A stretch of 64,000 nt of DNA, taken from contig NW_027590136.1 of NCBI RefSeq assembly GCF_964213995.1, forward strand, positions 1,178,001 to 1,242,000. The letters run 5' to 3'. The translations under genes and the position numbers were made by a program. The notes under the pieces were generated by a model. It had not been told where the DNA came from. It worked only from the letters and a program-made list of their open reading frames with translations, and searched no databases. This DNA is from Mustelus asterias (Eukaryota). Of the stretch, positions 3,665 to 4,460 are shown in pieces. How positions within the stretch are numbered: position 1 is the stretch's first letter; each line of letters opens with the position of its first letter.

Positions 3665-4460
3665 ATCAGGGCCAGGGACAATGGCAAAGAGCCGGGGAGA
3701 ACAGGAGGCATGGTAAAGGGCAGAGAGCAGGGGAACAGGGCAGAGAGCCGGGGGAAAGGGCACATAGCCGGGAAACAGGGCAGAGAGCCGGGAGAAAGTG
3801 CAGAGAGCCGGGGGAAAGGGCAGAAAAACGCGTGAAAGGGCAGAGAGCCGGGCAGGAAGGGCAGAGAGCCAGGAGAAAGGGCAGGGGGACAGGAGAAAGG
3901 GTAGGGAGCCAGGGGAAAGGGCAGATAGCCCAGTGGAAAGGGTAGAGAGTCAGGGGGAAAGGGCAAAGAGCCAGGAGAAAGGGCAGAGAGCCGGGGAGAA
4001 CGGCAGAGAGACCAGAGAAGGGGACAAAGCCAGGAGAAAGGGCGGAGAGCCAGGGGAAAGGGTAGAGAGACCAGAGAAGGGGAGAGAGCCAGGAGAAAGG
4101 GCAGAGAGCCGGGGGAAAGGGTAAAGAGACCAGGGAAAGGGGAGAGAGGCAGGAGAAAGGGCAGGGAGGCAGGGAAAAGGGCAGAGAGATGATGGAAACG
4201 GCAGAGGGCCGGGGGAAGGGGAAAGAGGGTAGGGAGCAGGGACAGAATGTCGGGAGCAGGGCAAGAGGGCAGAGAGCCGGGGTAAAGGGTAGGGAGCTTA
4301 GGGAAAGGGCAGAGAAGCAGGGGAGGGGGCACAGAGCTGGAGAGAAGTGTGGAGAGCCAGTTGGAAGTGCGGTTAGCCAGGTGAAAGGGGAAACAAAACA
4401 CCGGGAATGGCAGAGAGCAGGGGAAGGGGCAAAGAGCCGGGGAAAATGGACAGAGGGTGA
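3665..4460 (+). repeat. G/purine-rich tandem repeat, ~20-bp unit GGGCAGAGAGCC(G/A)GG(G/A)GAAA
   Basis: Dozens of imperfect copies of gggcagagagccgggggaaa / gggcagagagccaggagaaa; the top strand is strongly depleted of T. Confidence 0.92.

Follow-up and report, generated by a model that had tools for sequence, protein, structure and literature searches.

The G-rich repeat array that precedes the first constant exon of an IgM heavy-chain gene in the 64-kb stretch of DNA analysed here (the window) is probably a decaying 20-bp intronic minisatellite, likely of single origin in the common ancestor of the main IgM clade and likely a passenger ever since, with no switch function. Comparison of the DNA of related clusters shows homologous flanks, alignment unit by unit, frayed edges, gains and losses of whole units in the core and the fastest decay at CpG, a pattern that speaks for a passenger. 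The preliminary description of this DNA had suggested a proto-switch element; its account of composition and position was largely borne out, and beyond those two properties we obtained no positive support for a switch role.

Structure and surroundings of the array

The array lies in the JH-Cmu intron of a V-D-J-C(x4) heavy-chain cluster, on its sense strand, in a genome of 3.68 Gb (Table 1). TRF reports 37.2 copies of period 20 over the core, with 67% matches and 10% indels, and the unit profile agrees with this count and with the ~800 bp of a 20-bp unit described beforehand. Positions 3665-4460 contain 377 G, 277 A, 107 C and 35 T on the sense strand (47%, 35%, 13% and 4%), including 63 runs of at least three G, so that the non-template strand is indeed G-rich with clustered G-runs; at 82% purine, the array is purine-rich no less than G-rich. 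It has the top positive GC skew of the window. Units occur at a density of 16 per 300 bp, far above chance, compared with at most three in 12 background chunks. The sequence GAGCCGGGGG is found three times in the array, and the exact unit quoted in the preliminary description twice. Palindromic AGCT sites are few, as had been noted (two in 796 bp). The statement that nearly every unit carries an AGC was too strong (21 of 31 recognisable units), and the mammalian pentamers with which a parallel was drawn are nearly absent: the array has GAGCT twice, GGGGT once, and GGGCT and TGGGG not at all.

Table 1. Coordinates of the array and of neighbouring features in the window
Feature	Position	Strand	Basis or remark
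C-rich tract of (CTCA)n type, immediately 5' of the array	2957..3549	+	Opposite GC skew; R-loop zone predicted for antisense transcription only
20-bp purine/G-rich minisatellite including frayed edges	~3632..4461	+	Unit profile scan, ~37 units; composition
Array core	3715..4445	+	TRF at period 20, with further scores at 40 and 60
Decayed fragment 3' of the array, resembling a retroposon tail	4509..4575	+	75-77% matches to two dispersed copies
IgM CH1 exon	5434..5733	+	Pfam C1-set; 98 IgM-type genome matches
IgM CH2 exon	6715..7017	+	C1-set domain
IgM CH3 exon, ends approximate	7943..8251	+	C1-set domain
IgM CH4 exon with secretory tail	8739..9125	+	C1-set domain

Upstream of the window, a VH lies at about -7880, the JH at about -6750 and, between them, a single clear D at about -7140. 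The JH-Cmu intron thus measures ~12.1 kb, and the array starts ~10.3 kb after JH and ends ~975 bp before CH1, in keeping with the ~1 kb given previously. The labels IgM, IgW, IgNAR and light chain are ones that we assume from domain layout and characteristic sequence features, the comparison itself having given mammalian heavy-chain matches only; the fragment 3' of the array is presumably a retroposon tail. Two simple motif scans found no transmembrane exons, and a scan with enhancer motifs, a weak test for an I promoter, found nothing clustered near the array. One run that we guess to be RNA has reads over CH1 and zero over the array, and carries no evidential weight.

GC skew is strongly negative over positions 1819-3549, which contain the CTCA tracts, and flips to strongly positive at 3632-4461; given this flip at the junction of tract and array, transcription leading away from it in either direction is predicted to form R-loops. 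The same intron contains a tRNA-Pro(TGG) gene on the minus strand (2688-2777), interrupted at the canonical position by an 18-nt intron; ARAGORN without intron mode reads the gene as tRNA-Gln. It is absent from all 60 other upstream regions fetched and belongs to a dispersed family, all 40 scored matches lying at 91-100%. The JH of this cluster (L031, ~6750 bp upstream of the window) reads YCGQGT, with Cys replacing the conserved Trp that is kept in all 16 other JH segments seen, and a cluster with this JH and a single clear D may be atypical or impaired; three further near-identical copies of it exist. Rhodopsin-family GPCR frames follow 3' of the IgM gene at 23781-24640, 38354-39382 and 56698-57519; one of them is roughly full-length, the other two are split or partial. 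In the other direction, ~31 kb before the window starts (L034:8022-8865), there are ten 84-bp repeats that resemble a C2H2 zinc-finger gene.

Distribution and decay of the repeat

A genome search with CH1 gave 98 IgM-type matches among 150 scored. We examined 56 of these 98 loci, the window and 55 others, chosen so that each set of equally scoring matches had roughly one representative, and read ~9.6 kb of upstream sequence for each. The array (at least seven units, the G-rich strand being the sense strand in every case) has the same position and strand in 49 of the 51 loci with an open CH1, and is found in none of the five with stops in CH1. The two open-CH1 loci that lack it, L103 and L104 (CH1 55-56%), come from a separate, well supported branch of three members, and the array would therefore date from the ancestor of the main clade. 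Its length ranges from 215 to 1234 bp. Four loci (L055, L095, L098 and L099) have lost pieces of the intron and retain an array remnant of 215-290 bp, while L100, the most basal member of the clade (CH1 67%), has a 1.2-kb G-rich array with little flanking homology remaining. Array and flank pieces also occur in contigs from other organisms, at least five in number (B, C, D, E and F), several of them bridging the flank into the array; in organisms G and H the array is covered, with no bridging piece among the matches listed. These contigs, with matches of at least 80%, belong to near relatives. The joints that they show within the array reflect length differences between paralogues, and we did not use them as evidence.

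From the 5' flank across the array and as far as CH1, the cluster of the window aligns at ~84-88% with most clusters of the main clade, and the shared position is explained by the co-inheritance of the intron flanks through cluster duplication. Across 36 clusters (8 of the 44 with CH1 of at least 79% were dropped for large indels or a broken CH1), the mean pairwise distance is 0.110 in the array core and 0.067 in its 3' part, compared with 0.081 at third positions of CH1 and 0.051-0.071 in the 3' flanks, although alignment within repeats may inflate the array values; gaps amount to 11-12% in the array versus less than 1% in the 3' flanks. As far as these alignments tell, the array is conserved no better than its flanks. 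The weakest positions of the unit are CCG (0.72, 0.78 and 0.51), and decay is fastest at CpG. Among 1097 units, the AGCCA variant accounts for 266 and AGCTG, which creates an AGCT, for 101, both counts being inflated by near-copies (55 versus 42 distinct units); since AGCCA is the commoner, there is no sign of the array drifting toward AGCT. We thus find what characterizes a minisatellite: a 20-bp unit repeated head to tail, divergence not below that of neutral flanks, and variation in copy number by whole units together with decayed edges, here between paralogues rather than alleles. The broken loci without an array, the deleted loci with a remnant and the L100 array without flank weakly hint at something other than neutrality, weakly because the broken loci lost the flanking intron too and because tandem repeats renew themselves.

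Exact-pattern searches with the unit returned 235 and 787 matches, and we inspected the first 100 of each, from contig C27 on. A repeat scattered over the genome was rejected: among the matches listed, the contigs carry either IgM clusters or one family of non-Ig blocks. The arrays on the other contigs are longer and purer than those of IgM, with 75-185 or more near-identical units at 91-94% identity. They are held by a non-coding-looking, repeat-rich, multi-copy block of more than 20 kb on at least 17 contigs, often near contig ends (L035-L054, L128-L131, L133 and L134); an env-like ORF lies beside two copies, and one block, on C194, lies on the opposite strand to an IgM CH1 and ~35 kb downstream of it. 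We also rejected the idea that these long arrays are switch regions of IgW or IgNAR, as none of 38 stretches had an Ig V or C match (10 queries, ~10 kb per side). Around them, Rfam gave no match in 14 searched, and Pfam, applied to 80 of the 239 ORFs, recognized retroelement-type domains and no Ig domain. A flank common to IgM and non-Ig arrays was likewise sought and rejected, simple repeats being all that they share. Two other G-rich minisatellites in the same non-Ig blocks, L048:8588-9900 (1.3 kb, 59% G, 64 AGCT per kb) and L049:7750-8500 (0.75 kb, 70% G, 44 AGCT per kb), have an AGCT in nearly every unit and mimic mammalian S regions more closely than the IgM array does.

Comparison with switch regions

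The array shares with switch regions its tandem repetition 5' of the first C exon and its G-rich non-template strand with G clusters. Enrichment in overlapping AID hotspots (AGCT/WGCW) and a partner S-like region before each switching isotype, here the IgW- and IgNAR-type loci, are both missing, and with two defining features lacking we do not class the array as a switch region. AGCT occurs at 2.5 per kb in the array versus 3.1 in the rest of the window, and WGCW at 10 versus 18.6; over 43 arrays the values are 4.9 and 11.8, versus 2.3 and 14.3 elsewhere in the same introns. Top-strand WRC is at 45 per kb, compared with 58 in the rest of the window. A point in favour of the preliminary description is RGYW, at 55 per kb versus 26 in the background, mostly as the bottom-strand hotspot GGCA. 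Moreover, hotspots on opposite strands at most 10 nt apart (GGCA with AGCC) reach 21 per kb versus 12 (1.8-fold).

G4Hunter gives a mean of 1.0 over the array, with 10 loose quadruplex motifs, and scores equal to those of shuffled sequence. By a QmRLFS-like rule, the array is the sole predicted R-loop zone on the sense strand in the 64 kb, with 17 initiation-zone matches and G-rich extensions of up to 1.2 kb. Both quadruplex and R-loop potential are thus predicted, and in this predicted potential the array resembles a mammalian S region. According to one study, a synthetic S region of nine 80-bp repeats (720 bp, 46% G, four AGCT per repeat, i.e., 50 per kb) works (PMC4245955); the array matches it in length and G-density, with AGCT 10-20 times lower. 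The best switching has been ascribed to R-loop strength plus hotspot density (PMC5485518). At 0.2-1.2 kb, the IgM arrays equal the working synthetic region and are short relative to mammalian S regions, which reach 10 kb (S-gamma1), and they differ from S-mu and S-gamma in having AGCT at background and the four pentamers named above almost absent (PMC2442634; PMC4245955). In Xenopus, also a cold-blooded vertebrate, S-mu is likewise repetitive and precedes C-mu; it is AT-rich and acts via its AGCT-rich parts, the reverse of this G-rich, AGCT-poor array (PMC2442634; PMC5485518).

Unlike the mammalian arrangement, the array has no counterpart before other isotypes. From V to C on the sense strand, neither the three IgW-type loci (C185) nor the three IgNAR-type loci (C71) contain a unit array or a G-rich zone of comparable strength, contrary to the enrichment envisaged in IgW and IgNAR clusters; they have at most three units per 300 bp, and G4Hunter maxima of 0.49-0.78 versus 1.11 at this array. 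For one IgNAR-type locus, where V was not located, the comparison used the 10 kb that precede the first C exon identified. At two places (L115:1254-3260; L119:5041-7806), tandem arrays of 48-50 bp units, 2-2.8 kb long, lie just upstream of IgW-type V genes. Our literature search, whose reach did not extend to the primary papers on shark switching, found no paper on this repeat, and we imply no novelty. Nurse shark clusters are the same kind of locus, and AID-linked exchange of VDJ between them has been reported; in reviews, this exchange is described as taking place without S regions and alongside hypermutation (PMC4279169; PMC4588147; PMC8201067), and we found no statement that ties it to a repeat near CH1.

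Origin of the array and competing explanations

We suggest that the array, after a likely single origin in the ancestor of the main IgM clade, was multiplied by the duplication of whole V-D-J-C clusters and presumably turned over through slippage and unequal exchange, as any minisatellite. When transcribed in a B cell it could, by prediction, form an R-loop or G4; with ~2-5 AGCT per kb and ~10 kb to the V promoter, it would offer AID few paired cuts. GC-rich, strand-skewed minisatellites (VNTRs) are a known class in vertebrates. The array resembles them in its 20-bp unit, frayed edges, length changes of the core by whole units, CpG decay and presence of the unit in unrelated blocks, and differs in having been multiplied by duplication inside ~90 antibody gene clusters and in being part of a transcription unit that is active where AID is expressed. 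Should the array be a passenger, G-richness and position do not mark a switch region, because far better switch mimics sit in non-Ig DNA of the same genome. If it is functional, the origin of switch-like DNA would move back to cartilaginous fish, before amphibians. Clusters with a long array, with a remnant (L055, L095, L098 and L099) or with none (L103 and L104) provide a natural panel for comparison.

We consider it unlikely that the array is a primitive switch element of the main IgM clade. An R-loop or G4 over the transcribed array would then expose AGCC on the top strand and GGCA on the bottom strand, ~8 bp apart in each unit, to nicking by AID, these staggered sites replacing palindromic AGCT; the array, retained where a cluster works and missing where it is broken, would focus AID breaks, which would be joined between IgM clusters in IgM-to-IgM exchange. 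Position, strand, length and the 47% G match the working synthetic S region, and the G4Hunter mean, the loose quadruplex motifs, the initiation-zone matches and the excess of staggered hotspot pairs are consistent with such a role, as is retention in 49 of 51 open-CH1 loci and none of the five broken ones. The observations that go against a passenger are the contrast between open and broken loci, the remnants, L100, the sole sense-strand R-loop zone, the hotspot pairs, AGCT at twice background over the 43 arrays, and the array in at least five other organisms. A switch element is nevertheless difficult to reconcile with AGCT 10-20 times below the synthetic region, WGCW under background and G4Hunter scores no different from shuffled sequence. 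Moreover, the broken loci lost the flanking intron also, so that the loss is not specific to the array, the most divergent IgM loci have none, and the best copies of the unit are in non-Ig DNA. The array also lies ~10 kb from JH, whereas the junctions in the primary nurse shark study reportedly fall in the intron adjoining JH. Finally, IgW-type loci lack the array despite the IgW-IgM exchange reported in sharks (PMC4279169), and the reviews describe shark switching as free of S regions and accompanied by hypermutation (PMC4279169; PMC4588147; PMC8201067).

Somewhat less probable still is that the array is kept for a role in IgM expression other than switching, through polymerase pausing at an R-loop or the binding of splicing factors to purine/G-runs before the CH1 acceptor. 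The fixed strand, the end ~975 bp before CH1 in most clusters and the remnants that survive deletions would fit this; conservation not above that of the flanks, two open-CH1 loci without an array and a distance to CH1 that varies from 265 to ~2200 bp argue against it. We regard it as very improbable that the array is unstable in the germline and, by favouring exchange or deletion between clusters, helps to shuffle V and C parts in evolution. The IgM clusters are mosaics whose relationships differ to the left and right of the array, and the array contains or adjoins the ends of the deletions seen in L055, L095 and L098/L099, but a copying model of 31 clusters placed 18 switches across the array, near the 14-17 of neighbouring windows; windows further 5' had 7-16, or 21-26 where they span large alignment gaps, and conversion tracts begin at other intron sites too. 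The break seen in the distance matrix was not upheld in this model, and we rejected the array as a germline recombination hotspot. In L073, L079 and L091, a 3' intron tract ~1 kb before CH1 differs by 7-9% from the cluster of the window versus 14-15% from their own group, an apparent sign of germline conversion between clusters.
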